Notes: generated by a model from the letters alone, not told the origin. A stretch of DNA of 29,677 nucleotides from Pseudomonadota bacterium (GCA_034439715.1 JAWXAY010000085.1:1-29677), one strand, 5' to 3'; shown: positions 1,368-20,808, counted from the stretch's first letter. Numbers and translations: made by a program.

Positions 1368-2657
1368 ATGCGTTACTATATAGAAGACCTCAAAAAATAC
1401 GTGGGCCAAACTGTTGAATTAAAAGGCTGGGCCTATAATGTTCGTTCTTCAGGAAAAATTAAGTTTTTGCTTTTACGGGACGGGACGGGACTTTGCCAAT
1501 GTGTTTATTTTAATGGCGAATGTGAAGAGTCGGCATTTAATACTTTTGAGCAGATCACCCAAGAAACCAGTGTAAAAGTGACCGGTACCGTTCGCGAAGA
1601 AAAACGCAGTCCGGGTGGGTACGAACTCACTGCAAAGAATTTTGAAATTATAGGCAAGTCTGTAGATTACCCAATAACCCCTAAAGAACATGGACCTGAC
1701 TTTTTAATGAACAATAGGCACCTCTGGCTTCGCTCAAAACGTCAACATGCCGTAATGCGAGTTCGAGCTGAAATTATTCGTGCCATCAGAGATTTTTTTG
1801 ATGGTCGAGGGTTTACTTTAACCGATGCGCCGATTTTTACGCCCAATGCCTGCGAGGGCACGTCTACACTTTTTGAAACTAAATATTTTGATGAGAAGGC
1901 CTTTCTCTCTCAAAGTGGTCAGCTTTATATGGAAGCTACCGCCGCCGCCTTTGGCAAGGCCTATTGTTTTGGCCCTACTTTTCGCGCTGAGAAATCAAAA
2001 ACGCGTCGTCACCTTATTGAGTTCTGGATGGTAGAGCCCGAAGTTGCGTTCAATGACCTTTATGACAACATGGAGCTTGCCGAGCAATTCGTTGAATATA
2101 TAGTTCAACGAACCCTTACCAACAAAAAAGAAGAGCTTATTACGCTTGAAAGAAACACCGAGCAGTTGCAAAAAATCAAGGGACCCTTTCCCCGAGTTCA
2201 CTATAAAGAAGCTGCTCAAATCATAAAAAAAGAAAATCCTGAATTTATTATTGGCGATGATTTCGGTGCACCTGATGAGGCCATTATAAGTTCCAAATTT
2301 GAAAAACCAGTATTTGTGCACCACTTTCCCACCGCCATTAAAGCCTTTTACATGAAAGAGGACCCTGAAGATCCTACTTTTAGTATGAGCTGTGATTTGA
2401 TTGCCACAGAGGGATTTGGTGAAGTTATTGGCGGCGGGCAGCGCGAAGAAAATATCGAAAAACTTCGTACAAAAATTCAAGAACATAAACTGAGCGAAGA
2501 ACACTTTCAGTGGTATCTAGATTTACGAAAATTTGGCAGCTTTCCGCATGCGGGATTTGGCTTGGGACTAGAGAGGACTGTTTCTTGGATCTGCGGCCTA
2601 GGTCACATTCGCGAAACGATTCCTTTCCCGCGCATGTATGGACGAAGCTATCCCTGA
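1368..2657 (+). CDS. asnS: Asparagine--tRNA ligase
   Basis: N-terminal OB fold (LKGW...FLLLRDGTG), LSQSGQLY, motif 2 [24 protein letters not shown], motif 3 [10 protein letters not shown]. Confidence 0.95.
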
Positions 2658-2673
2658 AACCCAAAGGAGCATA

Positions 2674-4245: not shown

Positions 4246-4255
4246 GACGATATTG

Positions 4256-5749: not shown

Positions 5750-5752
5750 CGA

Positions 5753-6283
5753 ATGTACTTTCAAGCTGAACAAAAAGGAATTAAGTGGGAAATCAATGTC
5801 AATGAGACCAGAACTCATTGGTCCATAAGCCTCAAGCCCGAAACCAAAGATTGGTCGCACTACGAGATGCCAAAGTCTAGTTTTCTAGAGTTAGACAATG
5901 CCATCAGTTTTATTCATAACAACTCATCTTATGTTTTTGATGTCGTAGGCTCTGGCACTGACTACACTGTTTATGCCCGCGGCTCCTATCGTGTGATTAA
6001 GATTTTTAACGACGAAATGCTTTTGCACGAAAGCTTAAAGCAAGACGGTGGCCTTGTCGGCAGCGACAAGCTTTCTGCTGGAATGCCCGGAAAGATCACT
6101 AAAGTTTTTGCAGAAGAGGGCAAAGAAGTAAAAAAAGATCAGCCACTTTTAATCATGGAGGCGATGAAGATGGAAAATGAGATTCGTTCTCCTAAAGCCG
6201 CGCTGATAAAAAAAGTTTTTGTTAAAGAGGGCGATGTAGTAGAGTCTGGGGCCGCCCTAATTTCATTTGAAAAATCAAAGTGA
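5753..6283 (+). CDS. Biotin carboxyl carrier protein with N-terminal extension
   Basis: EAMKMEN biotinylation motif preceded by AGMPGKI; starts 3 nt after the biotin carboxylase stop. Confidence 0.92.
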
Positions 6284-7872
6284 GAAAATCAAAATTTGAA
6301 ACTCAAAGCCAAATCGGCGTCAAAGACCTCTATTCTGCCAGCGACATTGCTGAACTTAATTTAGAAACTGAGCTTTCAGCTCCCGGAAAGTTTCCATTTA
6401 CACGGGGAGTGCAAGAAACGATGTATCGTGGGCGCCTCTGGACCATGAGACAGTACGCGGGCTTTGGCTCCGCCAAAGAAAGCAACGAGCGCTATAAAAT
6501 TTTATTAAATAAAGGGCAGACTGGTCTTAGCGTCGCCTTCGACCTACCTACGCAAATGGGTTACGACTCCGACCACGTTATGTCTACAGGAGAAGTGGGC
6601 AAAGTAGGCGTGGCTATTAGTTCAATTGAAGACATGGAGCTTTTGTTAAAAGGTCTTCCCTTAGAAAAGATTTCAACCTCTATGACCATAAATTCCACGG
6701 CCGGAATATTGTTGGCACTTTATATTGCCGTCGCCAAAAAGCGAGGAATTGCTTTAGATAAAATTAATGGAACCGTACAAAATGATTTGCTTAAGGAATA
6801 CATAGCTCGCGGGACGTATATATATCCTCCGGGCCCAAGCCTTCGTATCATCACTGACATCATCGACTATTGTCGTAAGCACGTTCCCCAGTGGAATACT
6901 ATTAGCATTTCTGGTTATCATATTCGTGAGGCGGGTAGCACAGCAGTTCAAGAAGTTGCGTTTACTTTGGCCAATGGCATCACTTATGTACAAGCGGCGC
7001 TTGATCGCGGCCTAGATATTGATTCTTTCGCTCCGCGGCTGAGTTTTTTCTTTAATGTTCATAATGGTTTTTTTGAAGAAATCGCCAAGTTTCGCGCAGC
7101 GAGAAGACTTTGGGCTAAAATCATGTTTGAGCGCTTTCATCCAAAGGATGATCGATCTATGATGTTACGATTTCACACGCAGACAGCTGGCTGCTCGCTC
7201 ACGGCGCAACAGCCTGAGAATAACATTGTTCGAGTTACTACTCAGGCCCTCGCCGCAGTCTTGGGAGGCACACAAAGTCTTCATACTAATTCGATGGATG
7301 AGGCGCTGGGGCTCCCTACAGAAAAAGCGGCTGGGATCGCTCTTCGAACGCAACAAATTATCGCTTTTGAGTCTGGCGTAGCGGACGTTGTCGACCCTCT
7401 GGCTGGTTCGTACTATGTTGAGTCTTTAACCAGTGACATCGAAAAACGTGCTTTGGAGTATATTCAAAAAATTGAATCGCTTGGAGGAGTTGTCAAGTGC
7501 ATTGAAACGGGCTGGATTCAAAAAGAAATTCAAAACTCTTCCTACAAATATCAGCTGCAGGTCGAAAAAAAGGACGAGATCATTGTGGGCGTAAATGAAT
7601 TTGTCGATAACAATGTGACACCCAATAAGTCGGTTTTCAAGTTGAGCCAAAAGGTAGGCAAAGAGCAAATTTCTCGGCTTAAAAAATTTAAAAAATCTCG
7701 CAATCAAAAAGTTATTGACGGGCACTTGGCCAGAATTAAGTCGGCGGCAGATACCAACGAAAATCTCATTCCCCTTTTTATTGATGCCGTCAGCGCCAAG
7801 GTTACTTTGGGTGAAATTTCTGACACCTTACGATCTGTATTCGGAGCCTATCGCGAAACGGTGACAATTTGA
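6280..7872 (+). CDS. Methylmalonyl-CoA mutase family, large (substrate-binding) subunit without B12-binding domain
   Basis: [63 protein letters not shown]; no DxHxxG cobalamin motif. GTG start overlaps the upstream TGA. Confidence 0.92.
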
Positions 7873-8357
7873 GACTTCGCGAGCTTCAATACAGCCAATT
7901 TAATCGCGAGCCCGCCGCACTATTATCACGATTTATAGCGATGATATTGGATTTCGTTGTTCTTGCTAGCCTTTTGTTTTTTTCTAGCTTTATGCTCTAT
8001 TTTATTTTCTCTCGGTACGGCGCGCGACAGGAATATTTCTATGGCATTCTCGGGTTTATAAGATTCAATATAATATTTATTGGTGTGCCCGCACTGTTGA
8101 TCGCCTATGTCTACTATGGAGCCTTTTACTCCAGCTTTGGAGCTACTCCTGGAAAAATGTTTATGGGACTAAGAGTGGTTGACTTTTACTCGGGTGAAAA
8201 CTTGGGGTTAATTCAAATATTATTTCGTGAGTTTTTTGGAAAGTGGCTTTCAGCTGCTATTTTATTTTTTGGATACTTTTTGTCGGTTATGCGTAAAGAT
8301 GGCCGAGCATTACACGACTTTTTTTCTTCTTCTCAGGTTATTTCCGACTGGGACTGA
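7869..8357 (+). CDS. RDD family membrane protein
   Basis: [22 protein letters not shown] and RALHD motifs with hydrophobic helices; TTG start overlaps the mutase stop. Confidence 0.85.
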
Positions 8358-9094
8358 TCGCCAAATATTCCGACCGTGAAAATTGAAACTTCGTAAAGAA
8401 ACATCATCGGAATCAACAACATGAACATACTTAACACATCCGGAGGCGTTACTACAGCCGCCACGACTGCCAAAACCACAATCGCATAGCGGCGCTTTTC
8501 TTTTAGAAATTTTTTATCAATGATTCCCATAATTCCAAGGAGAGTTAAAACGAGGGGCATCTCGAACATCAGCCCAAAAATTAACATGGTCGTTGTAAAA
8601 AAAGAAAGGTACTCGCTAATGGTGATCATGGCCTTATCTTCTTTGCCTCCAAAATTCAGCAAGAAATCAAACGCCATAGGCAACACTAAAAAATAAACAA
8701 AACACAGTCCTACCATAAAGAGAAAGGTTCCAAAAAAAATAAACCATAGACCATATTTTTTTTCATTCTCTTTTAACCCGGGTTCAATAAACTTCCAAAC
8801 TTGATACAACCAAAGTGGGCAGGTTAAAACAATGCCTGCCGTAATAGATACCTGAACATAAGAAACAAATTTGTCGACAGGGTTTAAAAACACAAATCCG
8901 CCTGACGGCAAGAATGCGGCTATTGGTCGTCTGATATAGCGAAACAGAATCTCGCTGTAATAGTAACTTATACCCGCGCCCACCAGAACAACTATGGCGC
9001 AATTAACGACTCGATCGCGGAGTTCGGTCAGATGGTGAGTGAGGTTTTCGGTTGGCGAAGCTGGCTCACTTGTTGGAAGCTCGATGTGGTCCAC
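8333..9094 (-). CDS. tatC: Twin-arginine translocase subunit TatC
   Basis: HLTELRDR, YQVWKFIEPGLKENEKK, FEMP, RRYAIV, VTPPD, LYEVSI; multiple TM segments. Confidence 0.96.
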   Translation of the reverse strand: MDHIELPTSEPASPTENLTHHLTELRDRVVNCAIVVLVGAGISYYYSEILFRYIRRPIAAFLPSGGFVFLNPVDKFVSYVQVSITAGIVLTCPLWLYQVWKFIEPGLKENEKKYGLWFIFFGTFLFMVGLCFVYFLVLPMAFDFLLNFGGKEDKAMITISEYLSFFTTTMLIFGLMFEMPLVLTLLGIMGIIDKKFLKEKRRYAIVVLAVVAAVVTPPDVLSMFMLLIPMMFLYEVSIFTVGIFGDQSQSEIT

Positions 9095-9099
9095 GTCGT

Positions 9100-9387
9100 T
9101 TATTCTTTCTTCAAAAAGTCGTCTGGTTTTGTCATTTCTGCAATTTTTTCTTTTTCTTCTTCAAGTTTTTTAGCGGCACTTAAAAGGTCAGTGGTAAAAT
9201 CTCGGGCCCAAGTGTCGGCCTCTTTTTTTTGCTCAAAAAAATCTTTGGAGACATCTCCCATAGAGCGCTTTAATTGATTTATCATTCGGGCTAGCGAGCG
9301 CGCTACCTCAGGAAGTTGTTTGGGACCAATAAACACCAGCGCTAGAATTGCAATGACAAGTATCTCTGAAAACCCCATGTTGAACAT
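9100..9387 (-). CDS. tatB: TatA/TatB family subunit (TatB-like)
   Basis: MFNMGFSEILVIAILALVFIGPKQLPEVAR: TM helix, G-P hinge, amphipathic helix; 5 nt upstream of tatC. Confidence 0.85.
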   Translation of the reverse strand: MFNMGFSEILVIAILALVFIGPKQLPEVARSLARMINQLKRSMGDVSKDFFEQKKEADTWARDFTTDLLSAAKKLEEEKEKIAEMTKPDDFLKKE

Positions 9388-9427
9388 ATCGTCGATGCTA
9401 CCTTTTCTCGTTGTCTTTCTCTATACT

Positions 9428-10045
9428 TTATTGCTTGGAAAACTTATGTGTTGCGTCTGGAAGGGCAAGCCCCTTCTCTAGTATTTGGTCTCTCGCAAGT
9501 TCTGAGCCTGTGCGCATATACTTTTCGTAGAGACGCAAGATGCTTTGATTTGAGCCATCGCTTGTCTTTCCGCTAATGTAGCCCAGTACATCGACAAACA
9601 TGACAAATTTCTCTGAGATTTCTTTAAACACTTTTGAACTTGGATTTTCATTCACATAGCCTGAGAGTGCCGCATAGGCGGTGCCTCCCATGTTAACGTA
9701 ATAGTCGAGATCAACCAACTTTCGTTGCAATGAATCCCCAAAGAAGCCGCTGATATATAGTGAGGTTTCACCTAGTTTTTTTAAGATTTCGACTTTATGT
9801 GCGCCGTCGGCGCCGGATGCTCTCAAATATAATTCTGCCAGCGTTCCTTGAGTTCTTTTTGTGCCCTCGCTTTTTTCGTCAAATAAATTGTCAGCAACAA
9901 TATACTTCTCTAAGAGTTTAGCCAAATAAGTGTTTACGGCCGGATAAGTATTAATGTTTCTTTGCGAAATGGCCTCGTTAACCCTTTCCAAAAAGAACAC
10001 CGATGGATTCAGACTAATCTCTAGTAGTTCTTGTTTATCTGACAT
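9428..10045 (-). CDS. Conserved hypothetical protein
   Basis: 205 aa ORF co-oriented with tatBC. The segment LGETSLYISGFFGDSLQRKLVDLDYYVNMGGTAY resembles a widespread uncharacterised proteobacterial family (recognised from memory). Confidence 0.7.
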   Translation of the reverse strand: MSDKQELLEISLNPSVFFLERVNEAISQRNINTYPAVNTYLAKLLEKYIVADNLFDEKSEGTKRTQGTLAELYLRASGADGAHKVEILKKLGETSLYISGFFGDSLQRKLVDLDYYVNMGGTAYAALSGYVNENPSSKVFKEISEKFVMFVDVLGYISGKTSDGSNQSILRLYEKYMRTGSELARDQILEKGLALPDATHKFSKQ

Positions 10046-10227
10046 TATCCCTCTGTCTAACTAACGGCATAATCTATGACTTATTTTAACAGTTTCCGTG
10101 GCCCTTGTAAAAGAGACCCCGATCAAAAGTCTAGGAATTAGATTTGAGGTTTGTTTTTCTCGTTTTGAGACGGCAATCAATAAAAAAAATTTGAATAACC
10201 ATAACAATTGATTCATCAAGGGCGCAG

Positions 10228-12003
10228 CTAAAGATTTTGCGATATTACCTTTGTGTGAATACTATCGGGCGGACTTTTGAGCCACGAATTCTGAGGAATA
10301 ACTAGCCCAGGGCCAACGAGGCTACCACCCAAAGTTTTTGCTCCCTCTTTTAAGATGGAGCCCAAAAAGCGGCCTTGATAAAGATAGACATGAGTATCCG
10401 TGCTCACCTGTATTGGTTTTGCGTCGGGGCGATAGTCCATAAGAATTGTTGCAAAGGCTGCACTTTTTCTATGAAATCCAGAAAACTGATAAGGACCATG
10501 AATTAAAAATACGTTGTCTTCTGTATAACTGCGATAAAATACGAGATCATGCATGAGCCAACTTTTGGCACCCACATATGAGAGCTCCACCTTGGCTCCA
10601 TCGTGAAGTCGGGCGTCACTCGCGATATGACTAAATCGCACAACACAGTGAGCCCCTATGCGCGCACCTTTTTCAACGAAACTTCCTTCGATAACAGCCG
10701 TTGGGTGAACATCAGCCCCATTCTGTATTACATTAGAAAGTAGCGCTACTCTCATAGAGTATGGAATTGACTTACGAACAAAGAGTGCCCTCAGCAATAC
10801 CGTGAGGTTCTGGCTCGCCCTCTCTTTTAACTGAATCAGAATTAAGATTTGATGCGCAAATAAAATGTCGAACTCGGTTATAACAGGCAAGAGTAGTGCA
10901 TGTGGCAAACTTCCTTTGTCGGCTGGGGCCAAAGAAGAAGGATAGGGAATATTATTAATATCAACCGGGAGATTAAGGTCCAATATTTCGTCTCCCTCGC
11001 CGTAAAAACGTTCCGCCGAACAGGGGAGATCTATCGTCGATTGTGTGTCGCCCCTTATAGAGTAGTAGTCTCGGTAGGTAACATCATCAAGTACGAGTTT
11101 AAACTTCAACGTGGCGGCAGAACCTCGATATTTTTTAATGGCATCAACGATGAGTTGTAGTCCCTTTTTATCAAACAAAAAATCACCGTCAAGTTTAACC
11201 GTCCACTCACTAACGATGTGGCCAAGGGCTGCTATTTCATTATTCAAGTAATCATTAAAAGGTCGGCCTAAAATAGTTCGGTTTTGAAAGTTTAATGATA
11301 ACTCGCGTTTAAAATGCATTTTATAGCGCGCTTTAATTTGCGACCAGGGCAATGTCGGGTTGTCGTGGTGCTCCCAGTGAAGTCCATTATTAAAAAACAA
11401 TTTATTGTACCATTTTTTATGATAAGTCGTCGTTGGCTCGTTTCTTTTTGGGGAGTGCTGTACAAAATTTTGAAACGTACTGAATACCCAACCAACATAA
11501 ATATGAGAAAGATAAAAAAACATGGCCAGGGGATTCACATTGTAAAGACCTATCAGCAACGCTAAAAGTGACCACTTTTGAAGTGAAATTCGTTTTTGGA
11601 TGACCCGCGAAACTGTTCCGGCCATAATTCCTCGTTTTATGCCCAGGCGGGCGAGATTAAGAAAGTAGGGCCACCCTAAACTATAATAAAAGGCTTTTTG
11701 GGAAAGCGTAGAGGAGTAGTCTTGAGGTGAGTTATTGTATTCGTGGTGATTAAAGTGGTGGAGACGATAACCGTCAAAAGGTAATCCAGCAATCCAAGAC
11801 AGAGCGATCGAAGGCAGAGAAAAAACTCGCGATGTCTTATACTGATGAACACATTCATGAAGTGTCACATGAATTGAATAATTTAAAAAAAATGCGGAGA
11901 TTAAAAGCGCGGCGCAACCTAAAACGGGATAAGCGTAAAACACTTGAATCCCCGCGCTCAGGGTTAATATCTGAAGCACCGGGAATATAAACAGCCAAAT
12001 CAA
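10228..12003 (-). CDS. Fusion protein: membrane fatty-acid desaturase-type di-iron domain plus GlmU-like left-handed beta-helix (acyltransferase-like) module
   Basis: His boxes HECVH (49-53), HHFNHH (82-87), NFVQH (179-183) and HWEHH (209-213) with TM helices; hexapeptide repeats from about aa 425 (NVIQNGADVHPTAVIEGSFVEKGARIGAHCVV). TTG start overlaps the upstream TGA (TTGA, 12000-12003). Confidence 0.8.
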   Translation of the reverse strand: MIWLFIFPVLQILTLSAGIQVFYAYPVLGCAALLISAFFLNYSIHVTLHECVHQYKTSRVFSLPSIALSWIAGLPFDGYRLHHFNHHEYNNSPQDYSSTLSQKAFYYSLGWPYFLNLARLGIKRGIMAGTVSRVIQKRISLQKWSLLALLIGLYNVNPLAMFFYLSHIYVGWVFSTFQNFVQHSPKRNEPTTTYHKKWYNKLFFNNGLHWEHHDNPTLPWSQIKARYKMHFKRELSLNFQNRTILGRPFNDYLNNEIAALGHIVSEWTVKLDGDFLFDKKGLQLIVDAIKKYRGSAATLKFKLVLDDVTYRDYYSIRGDTQSTIDLPCSAERFYGEGDEILDLNLPVDINNIPYPSSLAPADKGSLPHALLLPVITEFDILFAHQILILIQLKERASQNLTVLLRALFVRKSIPYSMRVALLSNVIQNGADVHPTAVIEGSFVEKGARIGAHCVVRFSHIASDARLHDGAKVELSYVGAKSWLMHDLVFYRSYTEDNVFLIHGPYQFSGFHRKSAAFATILMDYRPDAKPIQVSTDTHVYLYQGRFLGSILKEGAKTLGGSLVGPGLVIPQNSWLKSPPDSIHTKVISQNL

Positions 12004-13112
12004 GCAAGAGCCTTTAGAGCTTGGCTAATATCTGCTACCAGATCTTCTTCGTCCTCGAGGCCAAAACAAAGGCGCACAAGAGTTTTTTTAATTCCCACTT
12101 TTGATTTCTCGTGTTCCGTCATAGACGCATGACTTCCACTGTAAGGCTGGGCGACCGATGATACTACGGAAGCCATTGACGTTCCGCGGTCGAAGAGTTT
12201 TAAGGAATTCATAAACGTAAGTACTTGCGGTTCATATTTATCATGTAACTCTATAAAGAGAATGCAGCCATAACCCGTCAACTGGTGACCATCAATTTCG
12301 GGAATATAGACTTTTGCAACGGCCGGCTGTTCGGATAAAAAGGAACTCATAATTTTAATTTTTCGCTCATGCTCCTTCATGCGCAGCGGAAAGGTCTGTA
12401 GACTGCGGCGAATGAGCCACGCGGCATGGGGATCTAGATTTGCACCAGTATAAAAGCGCCAAGCAGCCAGTTGGTCACCCAGCTCTTTGCTATTGGTTGT
12501 CACTACTCCTCCCATGACGTCAGAATGGCCGGCATAATACTTCGAAGCACTAACCACGCAAATGTCGGCGCCATGGTTCAAAGGTTTTTGAAAAAATGGA
12601 GTAGCCCAGGTATTATCTACGACAATCAGAGCTTGCTTTGACTTAGACTTTGCTTTTTCAGAAATATTCTTAATGTTTATGGTTTTAAGTAATGGATTTG
12701 TTGGGGTTTCAAAAAATAGCATTCGTGTTTTTGGTGTCACTTTATCTAGCCAGCCTTTTTCATTTTCGAAATCGACCTTATCAAGTGTCATATTATAGTG
12801 GGCACAGAAATCCGTAATGTAGCGATAGGTGCAACCATAGATGAGTTCGTTTATTAAAACGTGATCACCCGGCTTTAAAATTTTAAGCACAAGGTTGATG
12901 GCGGCCATGCCAGTGTTCACAGCTATAGCATGGGAACAATTTTCGATTTGTTTTATGACTTCTTCAACTTCGTTACAATTTGGATTCGACTTTCTTGAAT
13001 AAAAGTGAGGCGAGGTCGACAAAAAAGCCGAGTTTTGAAAAATAGGAGTAACGGTAGGAGCTGCTCCTTCAAATGACAGCTTCGTGTGTAGAATCTTTGT
13101 CGATTCTTTCAT
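12000..13112 (-). CDS. PLP-dependent Cys/Met metabolism (trans-sulfuration) enzyme, methionine gamma-lyase-like
   Basis: YSRKSNP, TGMAA, IYGCT, FETPTNP, VVDNTWATP, PLP-lysine motif SASKYYAGHSD (K191), LVRLCFGLED; AAGGAG Shine-Dalgarno 8 nt upstream. Confidence 0.9.
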   Translation of the reverse strand: MKESTKILHTKLSFEGAAPTVTPIFQNSAFLSTSPHFYSRKSNPNCNEVEEVIKQIENCSHAIAVNTGMAAINLVLKILKPGDHVLINELIYGCTYRYITDFCAHYNMTLDKVDFENEKGWLDKVTPKTRMLFFETPTNPLLKTINIKNISEKAKSKSKQALIVVDNTWATPFFQKPLNHGADICVVSASKYYAGHSDVMGGVVTTNSKELGDQLAAWRFYTGANLDPHAAWLIRRSLQTFPLRMKEHERKIKIMSSFLSEQPAVAKVYIPEIDGHQLTGYGCILFIELHDKYEPQVLTFMNSLKLFDRGTSMASVVSSVAQPYSGSHASMTEHEKSKVGIKKTLVRLCFGLEDEEDLVADISQALKALA

Positions 13113-14493
13113 CTTTCGATCTCCTTACGGGGTAATGCGCGCGATCCAAGAGTTCATTGTATTTGAAATCCACTTTGTCCGAACGGCTGACTGAAAACCC
13201 AGTTGAAGCTGCATCTGTGCGAGAAAATAAAAATCTCCATGACTCTTTGGGTTTTAAAGATAGGGATTTGAAGCCCGGCACCCCAATTTCTTCGATCTCC
13301 ACTATTTCTTCAGCGGGTGATCGATTAAATAATTCTATGTGGGCCGAATTAATATCGTCATGCCAAAAGTGGGAGGTTTTTTTATAGTTAGTCGAAGAAT
13401 GGACAGGAACTGCTATTGATTGATTTGTTTCGCCGGCAAGAACTTTAATTGGGCTTAGCGTCCCGCACGTCCTACAGGTGCCGTCGTTTCGCAAATTTAC
13501 CCAACGTGATTGCATTCCAAATCTTTCAACCAAGATTGATGAACAACTCTGGCACCTAGAATTGAGCCATTCGCCTTGCTCAAAAATGTTTCCGAGATAA
13601 CAATTTTTAATGCCAAGAGAAAGCACCAAGTCTCGAGCTTTTTTTAAAAAATCAATCGAGGTTCTTTCTACATTTCGATACTTGTAGTCTGGATGAAAGC
13701 GCACGAGGTGCAGTGGTACGCTTTCATCGAGATTCGTTAGAACCCAGTCCGCAAGTCTTTTGACATCTTCAAAGTTGTCATTGAGCTCAGTGACGACGAG
13801 ATTGCTTATCTCTAGATGGCGATCGCCAAAGCGATAGACCTGTTTAATGCCATCGAGAACAGGCTGCAACCGCCCTTTGGCTACTTTAAGATAAAACTCA
13901 GGACTCATGGACTTCAAAGACAAACTAAAAATATCGATGACTTCATGTAATTCATCGATAGCTTCGGGACCAATATAAAATGCGGATTTGTAGAGGTTCA
14001 ACAAGCCGTTTTCTTTTGCCAGCTTTGCTGTATCATAAACAAACTCATGCCACACAACGGGATCATTATAGGTCCATGATAAAATTTTAATATTTTTGTC
14101 CAACGCCGTTTGTACAATTTCTTGGGGCGTATATGTTTTAAAGTCCTCGGCGCGAACATGTTTTGTTTGAGATGTTTGCCAATTATGACAATAGTCACAG
14201 TTAAGCATGCAGCCCACATTTCCAAGAGATAGAATGGGTGCACCCGGGGCAAAGTGGAGCACGGCCTCGGTTTCAATTACTTCCTGAGTAATGGGTACAG
14301 ATACGCCGTAGTTTAATGTGACTAGTTTGCCACTATTGTTAAAACGAACCCCACAAAATCCATGCGATTGATCAGAAATTTTACAATGCCTTGGACATAG
14401 GTAACACTCTACTTTGCTCTCTGAAAAAGTCCGAAAAAACTTAGCTGAATGTTCGCTAATTCCCAGTTGCCTTTTCCTTTCATTTAGATTCAT
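13069..14493 (-). CDS. AmmeMemoRadiSam (AmrS)-like radical SAM enzyme with C-terminal extension
   Basis: N-terminal C30xxC33xxxC37...C47GVR; radical SAM motif C95xxxC99xxC102 followed by HNWQTSQ; TYNDP; PLHLVRFHPDYK; YLGN; C314xxC317...C340xxC343; about 125 extra C-terminal aa; AGGGAG Shine-Dalgarno. Confidence 0.88.
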   Translation of the reverse strand: MNLNERKRQLGISEHSAKFFRTFSESKVECYLCPRHCKISDQSHGFCGVRFNNSGKLVTLNYGVSVPITQEVIETEAVLHFAPGAPILSLGNVGCMLNCDYCHNWQTSQTKHVRAEDFKTYTPQEIVQTALDKNIKILSWTYNDPVVWHEFVYDTAKLAKENGLLNLYKSAFYIGPEAIDELHEVIDIFSLSLKSMSPEFYLKVAKGRLQPVLDGIKQVYRFGDRHLEISNLVVTELNDNFEDVKRLADWVLTNLDESVPLHLVRFHPDYKYRNVERTSIDFLKKARDLVLSLGIKNCYLGNIFEQGEWLNSRCQSCSSILVERFGMQSRWVNLRNDGTCRTCGTLSPIKVLAGETNQSIAVPVHSSTNYKKTSHFWHDDINSAHIELFNRSPAEEIVEIEEIGVPGFKSLSLKPKESWRFLFSRTDAASTGFSVSRSDKVDFKYNELLDRAHYPVRRSKDERIDKDSTHEAVI

Positions 14494-14570
14494 GAGGTCT
14501 CCCTATTCGCTATTGCAGCAAACTTCCTTTAAGGTGGCAATAAGTTTAAAGGGATGCCACAATTCTCAAG

Positions 14571-15356
14571 ATGCACTCCTACGATTTAATTTTGATGTCG
14601 GGCAACCAGATTTGGCATCAGTTTTTTTTAATATTAGCGTTGTTGGTTGGTGCTATTTTTCTGTGGTGGGATTCTCGTTATTGGCCAATGGCATTAAGTC
14701 AAAAATTAGCGCTGATGTTGGTATCTTCGGTGGCCATCTTCTTGGGCAGCGCTCTTCCAGGTTTTTTTGCAGAAGGCTATGTCGACTCTCAAATTCAGGA
14801 TTTTTTTTGGGATCCCGCTTACCGTTTTCAGCCGGCAATTTACGCATTTCTATTGGGTCCAAAATCTGTGCTTGGCGGCTTTATCTTAGCTTTCCTTGCA
14901 GTGGCTGGATATAAGAATTTGTTTAATGTTAGATACGATACCAGCGACAGTTTTGCTCGTGGCACAATTGCAATAATGGCGATCGGTCGCTTGGGTTGTA
15001 TTGCCCAACATTGTTGTTTTGGAAGACCTACGCACTCACATTGGGGAGTTGATCTTGGCGATGGCGTTTTGCGCTATCCGGTCCAGGTTATTGAGTCCGT
15101 CTTTCTTTTTTCTTTGTTAATTTTAATTTTCAGGTTCCATTCTAAAAACCTTTTTAGCGGACTGCGGTTTTTTATCCTGTTTGCGGCCTATGGTTTTTTT
15201 CGTTTTATCATTGAATTCTGGCGAGAGTCGGTTTCTTTGAATATTATCGGCTTGGGATTCTATCAATGGTTAGCTCTATTGATGGGTGGCCTCGGGATTT
15301 ATCAATTACGAAAACGGCAGAATAAAATTAGGGCAAAGGATACTGCCACATATTAA
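14571..15356 (+). CDS. Prolipoprotein diacylglyceryl transferase (Lgt) family paralog, non-canonical
   Basis: Multi-TM protein with IGRLGCIAQHCCFGRPT..WGV, RYPVQVIE and YGFFRFIIEFWR motifs of the Lgt family. Confidence 0.8.
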   Translation: MHSYDLILMSGNQIWHQFFLILALLVGAIFLWWDSRYWPMALSQKLALMLVSSVAIFLGSALPGFFAEGYVDSQIQDFFWDPAYRFQPAIYAFLLGPKSVLGGFILAFLAVAGYKNLFNVRYDTSDSFARGTIAIMAIGRLGCIAQHCCFGRPTHSHWGVDLGDGVLRYPVQVIESVFLFSLLILIFRFHSKNLFSGLRFFILFAAYGFFRFIIEFWRESVSLNIIGLGFYQWLALLMGGLGIYQLRKRQNKIRAKDTATY

Positions 15357-15942
15357 CAATCCCCAAGTCACTATGAGAAAAACCTATGGCGCTAGCGCCC
15401 CCTTCAGCCCCTGCAAAGGCGGTTGCATAAAAGGAATCGCGGTCAACAAGGCCAACACTCCTACGATTTTCCCAATCATCCTTGGGAACAGGGTTCTCAG
15501 AAAATGAGATAATCACTGCTCCGCCAACTTTAATCGGGGAATTGGCGGCATAATTAATGTCAGAAGCTGTTTCGATTTCACTCCCCAAAGTGTCCTTCTC
15601 TAGGCATGGGGTATCATAGGCGCCATAAACCGCGCAAGACGTCGCAAAATCGGTTCCACAATTATTAAAAATCCATGATGTGCCAAAGCCAACGCTGAAA
15701 TGCCTTTTAGTGCCCAAATCATATTCAAAGCCAGCCTGCCTTATACACGCTGTATAGGTGCTGTATTCTTGAAAATAAATTTTTTCGGCCTTATAAATGG
15801 CGCCCAGTGCTACGGTCGCCTCTGCTCTTAAAGCGTTAAGTACCATACATTGGTAATTGGAAGCTGCAACACTCGTAAGAATAGATACAATAGCGAGAGT
15901 CGTCAAAAGCTCCACGATACTGAATCCTGAGTCTCGCTTCAT
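15328..15942 (-). CDS. Type IV pilin-like protein (prepilin N-terminal cleavage/methylation motif)
   Basis: From ATG 15942: MKRDSG|FSIVELLTTLAIVSILTSVAASNY (Gly -1, Phe +1, Glu +5), then EATVALGAIYKAEKIYFQEY helix; five Cys. Confidence 0.85.
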   Translation of the reverse strand: MKRDSGFSIVELLTTLAIVSILTSVAASNYQCMVLNALRAEATVALGAIYKAEKIYFQEYSTYTACIRQAGFEYDLGTKRHFSVGFGTSWIFNNCGTDFATSCAVYGAYDTPCLEKDTLGSEIETASDINYAANSPIKVGGAVIISFSENPVPKDDWENRRSVGLVDRDSFYATAFAGAEGGASAIGFSHSDLGIVNMWQYPLP

Positions 15943-16018
15943 TGAATAATTATGCCTTCTGCTGTTGGCGCCAGCAAGCACCATTGTAATAGATAGAATT
16001 CTGCGTCACTATCTAACT

Positions 16019-17009: not shown

Positions 17010-19619
17010 TCACCAAGGACATTGGCTTCCGACCGCCACCAAAACCGAGCTCGAGCCAAAAATTGCACTAGCCAAATCGCGCACTTCACTGGCTGCCACT
17101 TGATTTATTCTATCGGGAAACTCAAAAATTTCATTTCTTGAAATACCATAAATCTCATTGAACAGAATTGACGATGCAAAGGCTCCATTGCCCTGAAGAT
17201 CAATGTCATGTCGCCCAATTAGGTACCTTTTTGCGCGCGCTAACTCCACTTCGGCAGGTGCTTTCTCCATTATTTTTTTGAGTTCGATTTCCATCATGCC
17301 TATGGCCTTGGCTCCCTTGCCGGGAGAGCAGCCAATATAGGTTCCAAAATATCCGGTGTCGACGCCATCAAACCTGATAGGTGAAACGGAATAGGCCAGT
17401 GACGCCTTATCGCGAAGTTCGACAAAAAGGCGGCCCCCTTGCCCCGCTAAAATTGATTGCAAAACATGTAGTACATACCGCCGCTTATCAAACATATTTA
17501 AACCACGATAGCCCAAAACAATATGTGTTTGTTCTTTTTTTAATGACTGAAAATGCCTCGTCGAATCTCCGAGGTGTTTGAGTTGAAACTCTTTTTTCCA
17601 TTCACTGCCTACGGGTAAAGGAACCAATTGTTTTTCAAGCGCATCGACCCATTTATTGGGGTCGACGAATCCAGAAACTGCCACCATTAGATTTTTTTGC
17701 ATGGCCATCGCTTGGTAATGATTGGCGAGGTGTTCGCGATTTATTTCTGAGACTGACTCTGTCTTTCCTTGGCTGTCCCTTCCGTAGGGATGACCCGAAA
17801 ACATGCGATCCAAAAACAACTGAATGGCGACATGCGAGGCCTCATCATTTTGGGTTTTAATAGTGTCCAAAAGTATCGTTCGTTCGCGCTCAATAATTTC
17901 AGGCGGAAAGTTGGGCTCACTTAATACATTGGCAAAAAGACCCGCGCCCTCTTTTTCAAATGGAGATAAAACAGACATTGACACTCCGACAGTGTTTCTG
18001 CCACCGAAGGCAGACAGCCTTCCTGCGATGTCCTCTGTTTTGCGAATGATTTCTTCTTCGTTGAAACATTTAGTTCCGCTGGTCCAAACTCGTGATAACA
18101 TTTCGGTGAGTCCCTCGGCCTTAATAGGCTCTGCACGCAGCCCACCCAAAAATGCGGCGCGCGCACTAATAACTGGCGTGTCTCTACTGATCCTAAAGAC
18201 TACGCGCGTTCCATTTCGCAGGGTCTTCTCTATTATTTTAGGTTCTGAGTGTGAATGCGCAGATATTTTTATTTTTGCCTTTTTGGCTTTTGGTTTAGAT
18301 TTACTCTGGGATTTCGCTTGGGATGCCTTTTTAAACATTTCTTTGTAACCAGATGCCCAGACTTCAAAAAATTCTTTTTTGGTTTTTGCTTCTTTACCCA
18401 AGAGCACGGATAGGCTTAGTGCTTCGGGCACCAGATACTTTCTTGCCACTCCTAGTATTTTTTTTGCGTCCGTCCCGCAAATCTGCTTTAAATATTTTGG
18501 GTAGTAGTTGTGGTTACCCATAAAAAACTCAAGGTAACCCGCCTTGCCGGCAAGCCCATCGACAGTTTCAAGACCATAGTATTCGTCGGTCTCGAGTTGT
18601 AGAATTGCTTTTGACAGTTCATCTTGTTTGACTTCGGCGTCAAGTATCGATTCCAAAATGTCTTTTAGTTTTTGAAAGTACCGCTCGATCGAAGTCGACG
18701 GGAGCGATGCCACAACAAAAAACAATCCGGGGTCTTTATGGGCGAATGTCGACGCTCCCACATACCTGACAAGCGGCTCTTCTAGACGAAGCTTTGTAAA
18801 CAGACGAGAGGACTCTCCTTCGCCTAAAATCATCGCTAACAGATCAAGTGCTACCACATCTTTGTGTTTGATATTGGGAATTTTCCAGGCAAGGTAAACA
18901 AAGTTTTCTTCGAATGTTGATTGGCCTACGAAAACTCGTGCTTTTTTTTGCGGAGGTTCTTTTTTTCGATTCACCCTAGACACTTTAGTTTTTTTGATTT
19001 TTCCAAAGTATTTTTTAATGTCCGCTTTCATTTTTTTGGATTCAAAGTTGCCTGTGACCACAAGAAGCATATTGGGAGGTGAATATCTTTCGCTGAAATA
19101 TTTCTGGAGAGTTTTTCTAGTCACGTTTTTTATGATTTTTTCGTAACCAATTACGGGAATGCCATAGGGGTGCTTTTGATAGCTGTTTTTAAACATTTGC
19201 CAGCTCGCCTGCGAGTGCGCCGAATCTAGCGACCGCTTGATTTCCTCAAGCACCACTCCCCGTTCATTATCTATTTCTGCCTGATCAAACGTCGGAAAGC
19301 CTATCATCTCACTGATAGCCTGCAGACCAATTTCACTAAATTGCTTTGAAATTGTGACATAATAGACCGTTTGGTCAAAAGAGGTATAGGCGTTCAGCTC
19401 ACCGCCACTGCCTTCTATGGTTTTTGCTATTTCTCCCACCTTAAAACTTTTTGTACCCTTGAACACCAAGTGTTCAATGAAGTGACTGATTCCCTCTTGG
19501 CCCTTAACTTCGTCGGCGCTTCCCGTCTTTACCCACGCCTGAACCGAGACAACTGGTGCCTTATGGCTTTCAATCAACAATACCGTTAATCCATTTTGCA
19601 ATTTGTATTTAGTTGTCAT
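17010..19619 (-). CDS. M16 (pitrilysin/insulinase) zinc peptidase, two fused modules
   Basis: Inverted zinc motif HFIEHLVFKGT, ELNAYTSFDQT, ERGVVLEE; second module lacks HxxEH and carries RLFVELRDKASLAYSV; Lys-rich linker between modules. Confidence 0.93.
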   Translation of the reverse strand: MTTKYKLQNGLTVLLIESHKAPVVSVQAWVKTGSADEVKGQEGISHFIEHLVFKGTKSFKVGEIAKTIEGSGGELNAYTSFDQTVYYVTISKQFSEIGLQAISEMIGFPTFDQAEIDNERGVVLEEIKRSLDSAHSQASWQMFKNSYQKHPYGIPVIGYEKIIKNVTRKTLQKYFSERYSPPNMLLVVTGNFESKKMKADIKKYFGKIKKTKVSRVNRKKEPPQKKARVFVGQSTFEENFVYLAWKIPNIKHKDVVALDLLAMILGEGESSRLFTKLRLEEPLVRYVGASTFAHKDPGLFFVVASLPSTSIERYFQKLKDILESILDAEVKQDELSKAILQLETDEYYGLETVDGLAGKAGYLEFFMGNHNYYPKYLKQICGTDAKKILGVARKYLVPEALSLSVLLGKEAKTKKEFFEVWASGYKEMFKKASQAKSQSKSKPKAKKAKIKISAHSHSEPKIIEKTLRNGTRVVFRISRDTPVISARAAFLGGLRAEPIKAEGLTEMLSRVWTSGTKCFNEEEIIRKTEDIAGRLSAFGGRNTVGVSMSVLSPFEKEGAGLFANVLSEPNFPPEIIERERTILLDTIKTQNDEASHVAIQLFLDRMFSGHPYGRDSQGKTESVSEINREHLANHYQAMAMQKNLMVAVSGFVDPNKWVDALEKQLVPLPVGSEWKKEFQLKHLGDSTRHFQSLKKEQTHIVLGYRGLNMFDKRRYVLHVLQSILAGQGGRLFVELRDKASLAYSVSPIRFDGVDTGYFGTYIGCSPGKGAKAIGMMEIELKKIMEKAPAEVELARAKRYLIGRHDIDLQGNGAFASSILFNEIYGISRNEIFEFPDRINQVAASEVRDLASAIFGSSSVLVAVGSQCPW

Positions 19620-19632
19620 ATTAAGTCCTGAT

Positions 19633-20808
19633 ATGAAGTTTGGCGTTTACGTTCATATTCCCTATTGTGTTCAACGTTGTTCGTACTGTGATTTCGCCAC
19701 GTACAAACAAGACGAAATCATACCCTCTAAAGACTACCTGGATATCTTAAGAAAAGAAATCTCGGATAGGTCTGGGGCTGTTCCCTATCGCATCATTGAA
19801 ACTGTCTATTTTGGTGGCGGAACCCCCAGCTTGCTCGATCCCTCGGATATTCAATCTATTCTGGAGTGTTTGTCGATGGCTGGATTTTTATTTAGTCCAA
19901 ATATTGAAATCACTCTGGAAGCTAACCCGGGAACGGTTTCTGAAAAAAAGCTTTTAGGCTATGTAAACGCTGGCGTTAATCGAATAAGCGTTGGCGCTCA
20001 GACTTTTGACGCCAAGTTATTAAAAGATATTGGCAGATTTCATAGCCCCAAAGACACAGAAGTCACTCTCTCTTTACTTCGTGCCATTAATCTCAATTAT
20101 AGTTTTGATCTCCTTTTTGCTCTGCCAAATCAGACTCAAGAGTTGTTAGCGTATGATTTAGAAAAAGTTTTGGAATATCAGCCGCCACACTTAAGCCCGT
20201 ACTGCTTAACTTTACCAAAAAATCATAAACTACAAATCAATCGACCTAGCGATGATCGCCAAATTGAAATGTTTAATCACATTGATAGAGCCCTTTTGGC
20301 TAACGGTTACTCTTCTTATGAAATTTCAAACTATGCAAAACCCGGCTTTGAGTCTCGCCATAATCAATTGTATTGGGACGATTCGCCTTATTGGGGCGTG
20401 GGCTTGAGCAGCCATTCCTATTTTAAGCAGGGGTCCTGGGGCACTCGGTTTTGGAATCCAAGCTCTATAGAGGAATACGAGAAACAGGTCGCAAGGACAT
20501 CGGCCCCATCTGCCAGCATTAAGGACTATTTAGAGCCCTCTCAATACGAGGATTTAAAAATCCACGAGGCACTTTCTGATTATTGCTATACATTTTTGAG
20601 AACAGCACGGGGCCTTTCTGAGGGCGCCCTGCGTTGTAAATTTGGCGACTCACTTCAGTCGTTAGTTACAGATAAACTCCGACTACTGTTGGATAGGGGC
20701 CTTGTGTCCAAAACTGCTGACACTTGGTTCATTACTTCAGACGGAAAAATGATCAGTAATCATATATTTGAAAACGTCCACTTTACTGCATCTTGCATTA
20801 ACCGGTAA
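19633..20808 (+). CDS. hemW: Radical SAM heme chaperone HemW (HemN-like)
   Basis: YVHIPYCVQRCSYCDF, FGGGTPS, EITLEANP, YEISNYA, HNQLYW (HemW-type HNxxYW). ATG 19633 preferred over TTG 19603, which overlaps the M16 gene. Confidence 0.9.
   Translation: MKFGVYVHIPYCVQRCSYCDFATYKQDEIIPSKDYLDILRKEISDRSGAVPYRIIETVYFGGGTPSLLDPSDIQSILECLSMAGFLFSPNIEITLEANPGTVSEKKLLGYVNAGVNRISVGAQTFDAKLLKDIGRFHSPKDTEVTLSLLRAINLNYSFDLLFALPNQTQELLAYDLEKVLEYQPPHLSPYCLTLPKNHKLQINRPSDDRQIEMFNHIDRALLANGYSSYEISNYAKPGFESRHNQLYWDDSPYWGVGLSSHSYFKQGSWGTRFWNPSSIEEYEKQVARTSAPSASIKDYLEPSQYEDLKIHEALSDYCYTFLRTARGLSEGALRCKFGDSLQSLVTDKLRLLLDRGLVSKTADTWFITSDGKMISNHIFENVHFTASCINR

Follow-up and report, generated by a model that had tools for sequence, protein, structure and literature searches.

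The four genes at positions 10,228 to 15,356 of the window (the whole stretch of 29,677 nt that was analysed) are one copy of a conserved cassette of five modules: an AmrS-like radical SAM enzyme (rSAM), a Cys/Met-metabolism PLP enzyme (PLP), a His-box membrane di-iron desaturase/hydroxylase domain (DES), a paralog of Lgt and a left-handed beta-helix module (LbH). On balance, this cassette probably encodes a conserved, undescribed and lipid-directed pathway. Its product is most likely an unusual membrane lipid, possibly a sulfur-containing one.

The original prediction had read these genes as a coherent, undescribed pathway, and had inferred that they place a lipid with sulfur or with unusual unsaturation on an envelope acceptor. 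The coherent, undescribed pathway is supported, because none of the three findings named beforehand as speaking against it was obtained: the modules recur together elsewhere, the proteins stand apart from their housekeeping orthologs, and no characterised cluster or curated family matching the set was found in the literature searched or in NCBIfam release 20. The leads towards an acetylenase or an alkyne found no support here. No AmrS-type, PLP-linked or Lgt-linked system turned up in the searched text of a 2026 review of lipid-modifying radical SAM enzymes (PMC13459092).

Organisation and recurrence of the cassette

Three overlapping genes lie on the minus strand. The rSAM gene (13069..14493, 474 aa) and the PLP gene (12000..13112, 370 aa) share 44 nt (13069-13112), and the PLP gene shares 4 nt (12000-12003, TTGA) with an ORF (10228..12003) in which DES and LbH are fused. 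Within this fusion, DES forms the N-terminal part (11299..12003, about residues 1-235) and LbH the C-terminal one (10228..11298, residues 236-591). The gene of the Lgt paralog (14571..15356, 261 aa) is on the plus strand, divergent from the rSAM gene, and the two starts are separated by a 77-nt intergenic region (14494..14570) that presumably carries promoters; promoter- or terminator-like sites at the locus were not more numerous than in shuffled sequence. The overlaps and the divergent gene lie exactly as the original prediction had placed them, and the Shine-Dalgarno sites that it called strong for the first two genes correspond to a Shine-Dalgarno-like GGGAG ahead of the rSAM ATG and AAGGAG ahead of the PLP ATG. 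The fusion gene starts with TTG, preceded by no Shine-Dalgarno site as strong as these. A pilin-like gene adjoins the Lgt paralog in the window and is not kept in other loci.

Eighty loci were fetched using an LbH profile, and the 36 with a full-length LbH at 42-54% identity were considered as the close set. All five modules were found in 22 of these 36 loci, 16 of them having the modules on the same strand in the order rSAM-PLP-DES-Lgt-LbH, and the Lgt paralog adjoins LbH in 34. The gene set is thus more than a chance association, since it recurs in other phyla: by record label, the carriers include Planctomycetota, Gammaproteobacteria, Bdellovibrionota and others, all of them MAGs. Three genomes from the same phylum as the window (G003, G088 and G145) also have the five modules, the cassette being patchy there (5 of 301 genomes). 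The labels Aquificaceae, Geobacteraceae and Elusimicrobiota may be due to mis-binning; in the tree, the rSAM from the «Aquificaceae» locus has a position nearly identical to that of Cocleimonas rSAMs. The homologs derive without exception from MAGs or metagenomes, and those that bear a name are annotated as «hypothetical protein».

Cassette genes are tightly packed, with gaps mostly below 150 nt. DES and LbH are usually separate genes with the Lgt gene in between, an arrangement that goes beyond the original prediction, as do the many versions with an indolepyruvate-oxidoreductase-like (IorAB-like) pair or a private fatty-acid synthase. The IorAB-like pair occurs in 10-11 of the 36 close loci and is absent from the window's genome. 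MsbA-like ABC genes were seen in four loci, and a PS decarboxylase gene lies beside the cluster in two. Clustering of the ORFs of at least 80 aa from the 36 loci revealed no conserved substrate-like gene, only enzymes and membrane proteins besides the five modules.

A second architecture, mainly from Bacteroidota, combines rSAM, PLP, DES and LbH with a private type II fatty-acid synthase (FAS) set, an acyl carrier protein (ACP), an RND exporter and the IorAB-like pair. In G024, G261 and L083, FabZ-like, KS/CLF-like, KR and ACP genes lead into LbH, which is followed by DES, a HAE3/MMPL-type RND transporter, the IorAB-like genes, rSAM and PLP. The Lgt paralog was found in none of the 44 loci of this architecture, and the family as a whole therefore cannot have thiol diacylglycerylation as its core chemistry. 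Remoter LbH relatives lie beside KS, ACP, KR, B12-rSAM and MiaB-like rSAM genes. The source organism is a predatory-type bacterium, and its version of the cassette has no KS, ACP, KR or dehydratase gene.

Protein families of the five modules

The family calls originally made for the four genes all hold in Pfam and NCBIfam profile scores. Each cassette protein is a subfamily of its own in which the catalytic motifs are kept. Lgt and the PLP enzyme also have housekeeping copies in the source genome (95.7% complete), which score higher than the cassette copies.

The rSAM passes the AmrS model (TIGR04337, 283.3 bits for a cut-off of 220; 284.1 in the genome search), the match spanning residues 18-346 only. 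It has the CX3CX2C motif (C95/C99/C102), four cysteines on the N-terminal side (C30, C33, C37, C47) and four on the C-terminal side (C314, C317, C340, C343). At the C-terminus, a cluster-specific extension (about 110 aa) forms a beta-sandwich domain and finishes with an invariant LDRAHxP. Compared with 24 AmrS-like proteins of the phylum, it is 29-34% identical and longer (474 aa vs 341-396 aa), and bears ETEA where these extension-free proteins have EKKP; the top AmrS proteins of the phylum score 459-615 bits on TIGR04337, far above the cassette rSAM. Cassette rSAMs were split from other AmrS-like proteins with an SH-aLRT of 100 in a quick tree. As had been predicted, this rSAM is an orphan, because neither AMMECR1 (AmrA, PF01871) nor Memo (AmrB, PF01875) was matched in its genome, each control being positive in 5 of 14 genomes.

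The PLP enzyme has a full-length PF01053 fold (321 bits), with the PLP lysine within SASKY, and lies under every NCBIfam equivalog cut-off (the best being 284 vs 594; 261.6 bits vs 549.7 for methionine gamma-lyase, MGL, TIGR01328). The MGL-type YGC (Y92-G93-C94) is invariant in 19 cluster orthologs, to which the cassette enzyme is 48-63% identical; the two PLP paralogs of the genome are 31-34% identical to it and have YGG in place of YGC. It belongs to a distinct subfamily, a separate orthologous group linked to the radical SAM gene. No bona fide MGL over the TIGR01328 cut-off was found in 121 genomes of the phylum. The YGC motif is reported as an MGL indicator (PMC11568061).

In the fusion, DES matches PF00487 (89.9 bits, residues 31-229). 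Its three His boxes are present, with His 45/49/53, 82/83/86/87, 183 and 209/212/213 conserved in 24 homologs. No NCBIfam family was matched by this part at E<=0.01, and no characterised regiospecific subfamily (acetylenase, ketolase) was assigned. Left-handed beta-helix hits cover residues 424-581, and the LbH module consists of a reduced nucleotidyltransferase-like domain and a left-handed beta-helix acyltransferase-like domain, with the motifs FLIHGPYQ and HPTA..EG invariant in alignments. Its AlphaFold2 model (pLDDT 93) has a series of short strands between residues 200 and 340, and the best Foldseek matches were ST0452, GlmU, GMPP and eIF2B architectures (E 4e-9 to 1e-5 for ST0452/GlmU). 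Among PDB sequences, a profile search placed LpxD and LpxA nearest (E ~1e-7). Hexapep matches are present in LbH homologs, and NCBIfam matches were weak and partial (E 7e-5 and 4e-3), far under the LpxD, LpxA and GlmU cut-offs. LpxD and LpxA are acyl-ACP-dependent, and the ACP gene that directly precedes the LbH gene in relatives suggests an acyl-ACP or acyl-CoA donor for LbH. This family is a small one: only 81 representatives were found at E<=1e-30 among 1.84 billion.

The DES/LbH junction (around nt 11298) is bridged by contigs of all four other metagenome runs, with no differing letters and no indels, and the fusion is therefore not an assembly slip. Another 50%-identity cluster (P0002) contains a second, independent DES-LbH fusion.

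Of the three Lgt-family genes in the genome, the Lgt paralog of the cassette scores lowest (63 bits vs 220 and 186). It passes PF01790 (63.4 bits for a cut-off of 24.9) and misses the equivalog level of TIGR00544 (41.1 bits for a cut-off of 118.9); a phmmer search for a similar solved Lgt returned none at E<=1. The paralog family keeps the signature GR (IGRLGC...) and the R..E..R motif (FRFIIEFWRE), the GR and the R239/E243/R246-type network being mapped to E. coli numbering through the motif text of PMC4728403. The HGGL-type motif of arm-2 is replaced by GPK[ST]xLGG; the two canonical copies of the genome have G-G-x-x-F-Y-G-G. Mao et al. 2016 (PMC4728403) describe the signature R and the R..E..R motifs of Lgt as essential and its active site as facing the periplasm.

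Proposed pathway and competing explanations

The lipid-directed reading is favoured by the FAS, ACP and lipid-type exporter genes around relatives, by LpxD and LpxA being the solved sequences nearest to LbH, and by the MsbA-like and PS decarboxylase genes seen in some loci. In the proposed scheme, LbH would acylate an amino-acid-derived acceptor in the cytoplasm with an acyl chain taken from acyl-ACP, and the fused His-box domain would oxidise that chain (by desaturation or hydroxylation) at the membrane face. The PLP enzyme would perform gamma or beta C-S chemistry on a sulfur amino acid, and jointly with the radical SAM enzyme would supply or install a thiol-bearing group. After flipping, a step that must be assumed since the Lgt active site is periplasmic and LbH, PLP and rSAM are cytoplasmic, the Lgt paralog would add diacylglyceryl from phosphatidylglycerol to the thiol on the outer side of the inner membrane. 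This would yield a free thioether lipid resembling the N-acyl-S-diacylglyceryl-cysteine end of lipoproteins, without the protein. There is a tension within this scheme, as the His-box oxidase requires O2 and radical SAM and IOR-type enzymes are O2-sensitive. The IorAB-like pair has no necessary role in it.

The sulfur and thioether detail is put forward tentatively. Against the scheme, known Lgt enzymes act on protein substrates and not on small molecules, and PflA/AmrS-type radical SAM enzymes, where a function is known, are protein activases. A bolder proposal, which we regard as rather doubtful, is that no diacylglyceryl transferase before the Lgt paralog was known to act on a non-protein thiol and that the cassette would make a new class of free S-diacylglyceryl thioether membrane lipids. 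The PLP enzyme and the AmrS-like rSAM would then generate the thiol, starting from a lipid or amino-acid precursor, and LbH and the di-iron oxidase would add and modify the acyl chain.

Instead, the cassette could make a secondary metabolite or signal that diffuses, for instance of the N-acyl sulfur-amino-acid or homoserine/homocysteine-lactone type, with the Lgt paralog and DES serving self-protection, tailoring or export. Cys/Met-family PLP and radical SAM enzymes are frequent in natural-product clusters, the second architecture resembles a type II PKS/FAS-like biosynthetic cluster (no enoyl reductase being found in the scanned loci), and the patchy spread of the cassette and the small size of the LbH family are typical of accessory metabolism. 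This explanation is nevertheless unlikely: three of the five modules come from families that are integral to the membrane or handle lipids, the exporters seen are of lipid type (HAE3/MMPL-like, MsbA-like), and the scanned loci contain no NRPS, thioesterase or signal-synthesis-type regulator. Protein modification, in which a dedicated protein or peptide would be lipidated on a Cys by the Lgt paralog and acted on by the PflA/AmrS-type radical SAM enzyme, is improbable. It is not obvious what LbH, DES, the private FAS and ACP would do in such a system, no conserved substrate-like gene was found among the clustered ORFs of at least 80 aa, the tight packing of the cassette genes is a further argument against it, and the pilin-like neighbour in the window is not conserved. 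It is favoured by three sources, according to which protein S-diacylglycerylation is the sole characterised Lgt chemistry (PMC4728403), a so far unidentified Lgt-like acyltransferase is postulated for MYXO-CTERM proteins (PMC11980579), and predicted peptide-processing systems contain radical SAM domains of a kind related to Memo-AMMECR1 (PMC7159879).

Every family concerned has ordinary housekeeping members, with other copies in the genome, and the four genes might be diverged paralogs from methionine/cysteine metabolism, lipoprotein maturation and fatty-acid desaturation, with an AmrS remnant, that became adjacent incidentally. This is very improbable, being contradicted by the conservation of the linkage between the same subfamilies in several phyla, by the translational coupling through the 44-nt and 4-nt overlaps, by the independent DES-LbH fusions and by orthologous groups distinct from the housekeeping copies.

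Significance and comparison with known systems

AmrS-type radical SAM enzymes are widespread, and no reaction assigned to them was found in the literature searched. The cassette gives an AmrS-like enzyme a different, well-defined enzymatic context that points to testable substrates, and the minimal version has four or five genes and is thus small enough for synthesis and expression. If the bolder proposal is true, the cassette would be the first biochemical handle on AmrS-type function, and free thioether lipids would occur across uncultured Planctomycetota, Gammaproteobacteria that oxidise sulfur or methane, and Bdellovibrionota. Lgt is known only for the first, essential step in the maturation of bacterial lipoproteins, and a conserved paralog tied to small-molecule or lipid enzymes would broaden its chemistry. 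By record label, the carriers include planctomycetes, Thiotrichales-type sulfur oxidisers (among them a symbiont MAG labelled Thiodiazotropha), predatory Bdellovibrionota and methanotrophs; since the cassette is retained in such environmentally important uncultured groups, its product could be a membrane lipid or biomarker that has so far gone unrecognised.

The AmrS-like proteins of AmmeMemoRadiSam systems share with the cassette rSAM the N-terminal four cysteines, the CX3CX2C motif and the C-terminal four cysteines. Their partners are AMMECR1/AmrA and Memo/AmrB, whereas the cassette rSAM is partnered by the PLP, DES, Lgt and LbH genes, and it sets itself apart in sequence, length, motifs and the extra C-terminal domain. 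MGL, CGL, CGS and CBL, and natural-product C-S lyases, have the PF01053 fold, the PLP lysine and, for MGL, the YGC motif in common with the cassette PLP enzyme, which differs by falling below every equivalog cut-off and forming its own orthologous group.

With the Lgt/Lnt pathway, the cassette shares an Lgt-family membrane protein having the GR arginine and the R..E..R network, and the pairing of the paralog with an acyltransferase in 34 of the 36 close loci recalls S-diacylglyceryl transfer followed by N-acylation. The paralog, however, has a divergent arm-2 motif and a shorter head domain, with no lipobox substrate evident, and the cassette acyltransferase is a cytoplasmic LbH protein, whereas Lnt is periplasmic and has a nitrilase fold. 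The acyltransferases LpxD, LpxA, GlmU and ST0452 share with LbH the left-handed beta-helix and the nucleotidyltransferase-like N-domain; LbH differs from LpxD, LpxA and GlmU in its own invariant FLIHGPYQ and in being desaturase-fused in the window and in one other cluster. Finally, FabZ-like, KS/CLF-like, KR, ACP and RND genes are common to the operons of the cassette's relatives and to specialised type II FAS-like lipid clusters (aryl polyene, ladderane-type), from which the cassette of the window itself differs in having no KS, ACP, KR or dehydratase.

Gene organisation of the cassette and its setting

The cassette (10228-15356) consists of three overlapping minus-strand genes and one divergent plus-strand gene. 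The trio encodes an AmrS-like radical SAM protein (rSAM; 13069-14493, 474 aa; 283 bits on TIGR04337 against a cut-off of 220, with a match covering residues 18-346 only), a Cys/Met-family PLP enzyme (PLP; 12000-13112, 370 aa; 321 bits on PF01053, and under every NCBIfam equivalog cut-off, the best being 284 against 594) and a fusion (10228-12003, 591 aa) of a His-box desaturase domain (DES; FA_desaturase at residues 31-229) with a left-handed beta-helix acyltransferase-like module (LbH; residues 424-581). The divergent gene (14571-15356) encodes an Lgt paralog of 261 aa that scores 63 bits on PF01790 and 41 bits on TIGR00544 (cut-off 118.9). The overlaps of 44 nt and 4 nt (TTGA) within the trio and the 77 nt between the Lgt-family gene and the rSAM start, as claimed in the original prediction, were reproduced exactly by the ORF list, and the strong Shine-Dalgarno sites that it assigned to the first two genes correspond to GGGAG and AAGGAG, 6-8 nt before ATG starts; the fusion, third in the trio, begins with TTG and has no site of that strength before it. 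A promoter and terminator scan gave 16 and 9 sites versus 13.1 and 7.2 expected. The region has an even GC content (0.41-0.43), so the cassette bears no mark of a recent island. The DES/LbH junction was bridged without any difference by contigs from all four of four other metagenome runs, showing the fusion to be real DNA; one sampling campaign may underlie all four, since they bear the same habitat label. The DNA is abundant in samples of the microbial-mat type, and no RNA source was listed for the stretch. The 205-aa ORF downstream (9428-10045, minus strand) was left out of the cassette because it belongs to no Pfam or NCBIfam family and has no homolog in 80 related loci.

In the corresponding genome (3.26 Mb, 111 contigs, 95.7% complete), the rSAM is an orphan as proposed: it is the sole TIGR04337 match, and no match to AMMECR1 or Memo was obtained. 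The genome carries two further Lgt genes in tandem on another contig (220 and 186 bits), two further full-length Cys/Met PLP genes (531 and 404 bits) and two further desaturase-family genes, which makes the cluster genes additional copies and not the housekeeping ones. The tandem canonical Lgt pair (L098/L099, at G000:C39:36868-38395) has the signature GR.(A/G)C...GCC.G, with F-Y-G-G replacing the H-G-G-L of E. coli.

Genes for a propionyl-CoA carboxylase-type carboxyltransferase, a biotin carboxylase, a biotin carrier and a methylmalonyl-CoA mutase (2638-7872, plus strand) are located some 2.4 kb away from the cassette; TatC, TatA/B and RDD-protein genes and one orphan gene intervene. Since gamma-lyase action on Met or homocysteine would yield 2-oxobutyrate and then propionyl-CoA, this nearness could be meaningful or a coincidence. 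On the other side, a type IV pilin-like gene (15328-15984, minus strand; N-terminal methylation motif, weak PilA_Myxo match) is convergent with the Lgt paralog and covers 29 nt of its 3' end; it is not kept beside the cassette at other loci. A second, unrelated radical SAM gene (19603-20808, plus strand, 401 aa) is located directly upstream of grpE and dnaJ.

Subfamily status of the cassette proteins

The original prediction held that each protein deviates from its housekeeping family, and comparison indeed placed rSAM, PLP, DES, the Lgt paralog and LbH each in a subfamily of its own; judged from their sequences, these proteins look active. For rSAM, 19 cluster orthologs (40-59% identity) have invariant C30/C37/C47 (C33 nearly so), C95/C99/C102 and C314/C317/C340/C343; they also carry a C-terminal extension of some 110 residues, in which W377, H385, R420 and LDRAHxP do not vary. 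The other AmrS-like proteins of the phylum have all Cys motifs in common with the cluster type, but have EKKP instead of ETEA, lack the extension (341-396 aa), are 29-34% identical to it and score, for the highest among them, 459-615 bits on TIGR04337 versus 284 for the window rSAM. A quick maximum-likelihood tree (20 cluster-type and 24 other sequences, omitting three duplicate rows and trimming one fused ORF) split the two types on one branch (SH-aLRT 100). Folded alone, the extension is predicted as a beta-sandwich (pLDDT 82); Foldseek returned no match to this model at E<=0.001, and the best VIA-align Z of 7.5 (YomS, GOLD domains) is typical of chance-level common folds. Prediction of an rSAM-PLP complex (alignments A3 and A4) gave a score of 0.00 in a run without controls, which speaks neither for nor against a complex.

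The 19 PLP orthologs (48-63% identical) have invariant K191, a D166-N-T motif, R347 and Y92-G93-C94. YGC is reported as a methionine gamma-lyase indicator (PMC11568061), and the genome's own PLP paralogs, 31-34% identical to the cluster PLP, have YGG instead. Genuine methionine gamma-lyases, sought in order to map the KD motif, were not found over the cut-off in 121 genomes of the phylum. The DES His boxes are kept in 24 homologs, implying an O2-dependent di-iron enzyme (predicted).

The Lgt paralog family keeps the signature-motif GR and the R..E..R of the genome's two canonical copies, and differs from them by GPK[ST]xLGG in place of the arm-2 motif and by a shorter head domain. The kept residues correspond to R143, reported as essential in E. 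coli Lgt, and to its R239/E243/R246 network (both from PMC4728403); the correspondence was established by motif because phmmer retrieved no solved Lgt at E<=1. L019, one of the related loci, encodes at 7221-7877 a paralog without the stretch bearing the signature motif, and in L028 (= L015) the rSAM is split into two overlapping ORFs of 162 and 299 aa (1703-3051); in both MAGs, gene decay or faulty assembly may be the cause.

The AlphaFold2 model of LbH (pLDDT 93, pTM 0.90) places a beta-helix after a small alpha/beta domain, and resembles by Foldseek the architectures of ST0452, GlmU, GMPP and eIF2B (best E 4.4e-9, TM about 0.4); by profile, the nearest solved sequences are LpxD and LpxA (E about 1e-7). 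The family is small: a set of 1.84 billion contains 1524 representatives at E<=1e-3, 388 at E<=1e-10 and 81 at E<=1e-30, and a set of 5.8 billion contains 204 clusters at E<=1e-40. Among 120 clusters listed, all source-given names were 'hypothetical protein' and all named organisms were MAGs; the ESM Atlas gave only 'hypothetical protein', hexapeptide or mis-named clusters for the module. In one distant relative (P0068, 813 aa), the fusion partner is a glycosyltransferase domain of family 2/21, resembling the ceramide-glucosyltransferase type.

Distribution of the cassette and its second architecture

These subfamilies recur in two settings, one with the Lgt paralog and the other with a fatty-acid-synthase/ACP/RND-exporter set of their own. 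An LbH-module profile (A1) run against a one-genome-per-species collection retrieved 154 relatives, and 80 loci were retained (L018-L097, all MAGs), in which tblastn searches with the window proteins detected LbH in 80, PLP in 40, rSAM in 37, DES in 37 and the Lgt paralog in 34. No cultured carrier was present among these 80 records, nor among the 120 LbH-protein clusters listed. The genes had been proposed to belong to one pathway, and they do co-occur elsewhere: in the close set (36 loci, L018-L053, with full-length LbH at 42-54% identity), all five modules are found in 22 loci with labels from several phyla, 16 of them in the single-strand order rSAM-PLP-DES-Lgt-LbH. Given this usual order, the window layout, with DES fused to LbH and Lgt divergent, is a derived variant; a second DES-LbH fusion (667 aa) falls in a different 50%-identity cluster. 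The Lgt paralog adjoins LbH in 34/36 close loci, both exceptions having LbH at a contig edge. Several of the 14 loci with fewer modules are cut by contig ends, and some are true exceptions, with other DNA upstream (L029, L043, L052) or, in the fetched stretch, without PLP (L037) or DES (L045).

Labels in the close set are Planctomycetota (including Rhodopirellula and a Brocadiia MAG), Thiotrichaceae/Cocleimonas/Leucothrix, Methylococcales, other Gammaproteobacteria and Bdellovibrionota, with single MAGs labelled Geobacteraceae, Elusimicrobiota and Aquificaceae. The odd single labels may be binning errors, as suspected from the 'Aquificaceae' rSAM, which sits beside the Cocleimonas ones on short branches of the quick tree. 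The nearest loci bear the record labels Bdellovibrionales and Bacteriovoracaceae, which makes Bdellovibrionota the probable origin of the window. Within the phylum, the fusion protein was matched in 4/41 related genomes (in one, G014, by a weak desaturase-type match only) and its LbH part in 5/301 genomes. Genome G003, of the same family as the window, has a divergent Lgt-like gene, rSAM, PLP, and DES and LbH as separate, overlapping genes; G088 and G145 have rSAM-PLP-DES-LbH plus a convergent Lgt-like gene, and G024, G261 and G283 a different, larger architecture.

Clustering of the ORFs of at least 80 aa from the 36 close loci revealed four recurrent extra families: a pair of IorA-like and IorB-like genes that immediately precedes rSAM in 10-11 loci (409-452 bits on TIGR03336, where 651 is the cut-off), a 6-TM protein found in 11 loci, most of them planctomycete, a PF10118 protein (6 loci) and an MsbA-like ABC transporter (4 loci). 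The IorAB-like pair is optional, since a search of the window's genome with the Bacteriovoracaceae-labelled, cluster-type IorA-like protein gave no match, and only a distant OFOR (34 bits) is present.

The other 44 loci contain rSAM and PLP together in 12 cases, DES in 11 and the Lgt paralog in none. One of them, L083 (Schleiferiaceae label), encodes in succession Acyl_transf_3, FabZ-like, CLF-like, KS, KR, ACP and LbH, then a Rossmann-type protein, DES, an HAE3/MMPL-type RND transporter, IorA-like, IorB-like, rSAM and PLP; G024 and G261, from the window's own phylum, have a similar layout. A Roseibacillus-labelled locus is restricted to LbH-DES-IorA-IorB-rSAM-PLP, and two loci have a phosphatidylserine decarboxylase gene adjoining the cluster. 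In Riflebacteria-type and unclassified MAGs (L056, L058, L063, about 5500-16000), more distant relatives of LbH have KS, ACP and KR neighbours. The same stretches encode three further radical SAM proteins (one B12-binding, two MiaB-like), an IOR-like pair, a CdhD-like Fe-S protein and a methyltransferase, and look like another uncharacterised lipid-type cluster.

Proposed pathway and comparison with known systems

The comparisons show conserved subfamilies that retain their catalytic motifs, with translational coupling in many cases and fusion in some, and in its simplest reading the cassette would be a lipid-tailoring pathway. LbH is proposed to act as an acyl-ACP-dependent acyltransferase, in view of its likeness to LpxD/LpxA and its position after ACP genes, and the His-box domain may oxidise the same acyl chain or lipid, as the DES-LbH fusion suggests. 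The residues activating the glycerol C-O-P bond of phosphatidylglycerol for thiol attack appear to be kept in the Lgt paralog, and the PLP enzyme belongs to a family that forms and cleaves C-S bonds at the beta or gamma carbons of amino acids; together, these features point to a sulfur-containing product. One candidate would be a sulfur amino acid that is first N-acylated and, once flipped, S-diacylglycerylated. Alternatively, a thiol lipid might be produced via cysteine conjugation and subsequent C-S lyase action, a known logic of natural-product pathways. The rSAM could perform C-H activation on the chain or on a PLP-bound amino acid, and the optional IorAB-like pair could serve in 2-oxo acid disposal, starter-unit supply or ferredoxin supply. 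Two points weigh against the lipid-tailoring reading as outlined: diacylglyceryl transfer cannot be the core step, because one architecture lacks Lgt, and a flippase would be needed to connect the periplasmic Lgt site with the cytoplasmic enzymes.

Among known systems, the lipid-modifying radical SAM enzymes covered by a 2026 review (PMC13459092) include Tes, Mss, Gms, GrsA/B, Gmm, Cds, HpnH/J/P/R, Jaw5 and ladderane candidates, and a term search of the review finds no AmrS, Lgt, cystathionine or indolepyruvate. For a possible link to ladderanes, a term search of a 2009 comparative paper (PMC2649909) finds no acyltransferase, lpxD, lpxA, hexapeptide or indolepyruvate. Identity with a ladderane cluster was rejected because the window has neither KS nor ACP and because the cassette also occurs outside anammox bacteria. 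A search of Creative-Commons PMC papers and bioRxiv found no assigned function for AmrS. Work by Burroughs and colleagues on Memo-AMMECR1 systems, cited in PMC7159879, may contain AmrS predictions bearing on novelty. The view that this combination is not a described system stood, as no description was found in the same literature, and none of the models in NCBIfam release 20 is specific to the LbH, DES or Lgt-paralog subfamily; accordingly, the cassette is rated as an undescribed system assembled from known enzyme superfamilies.
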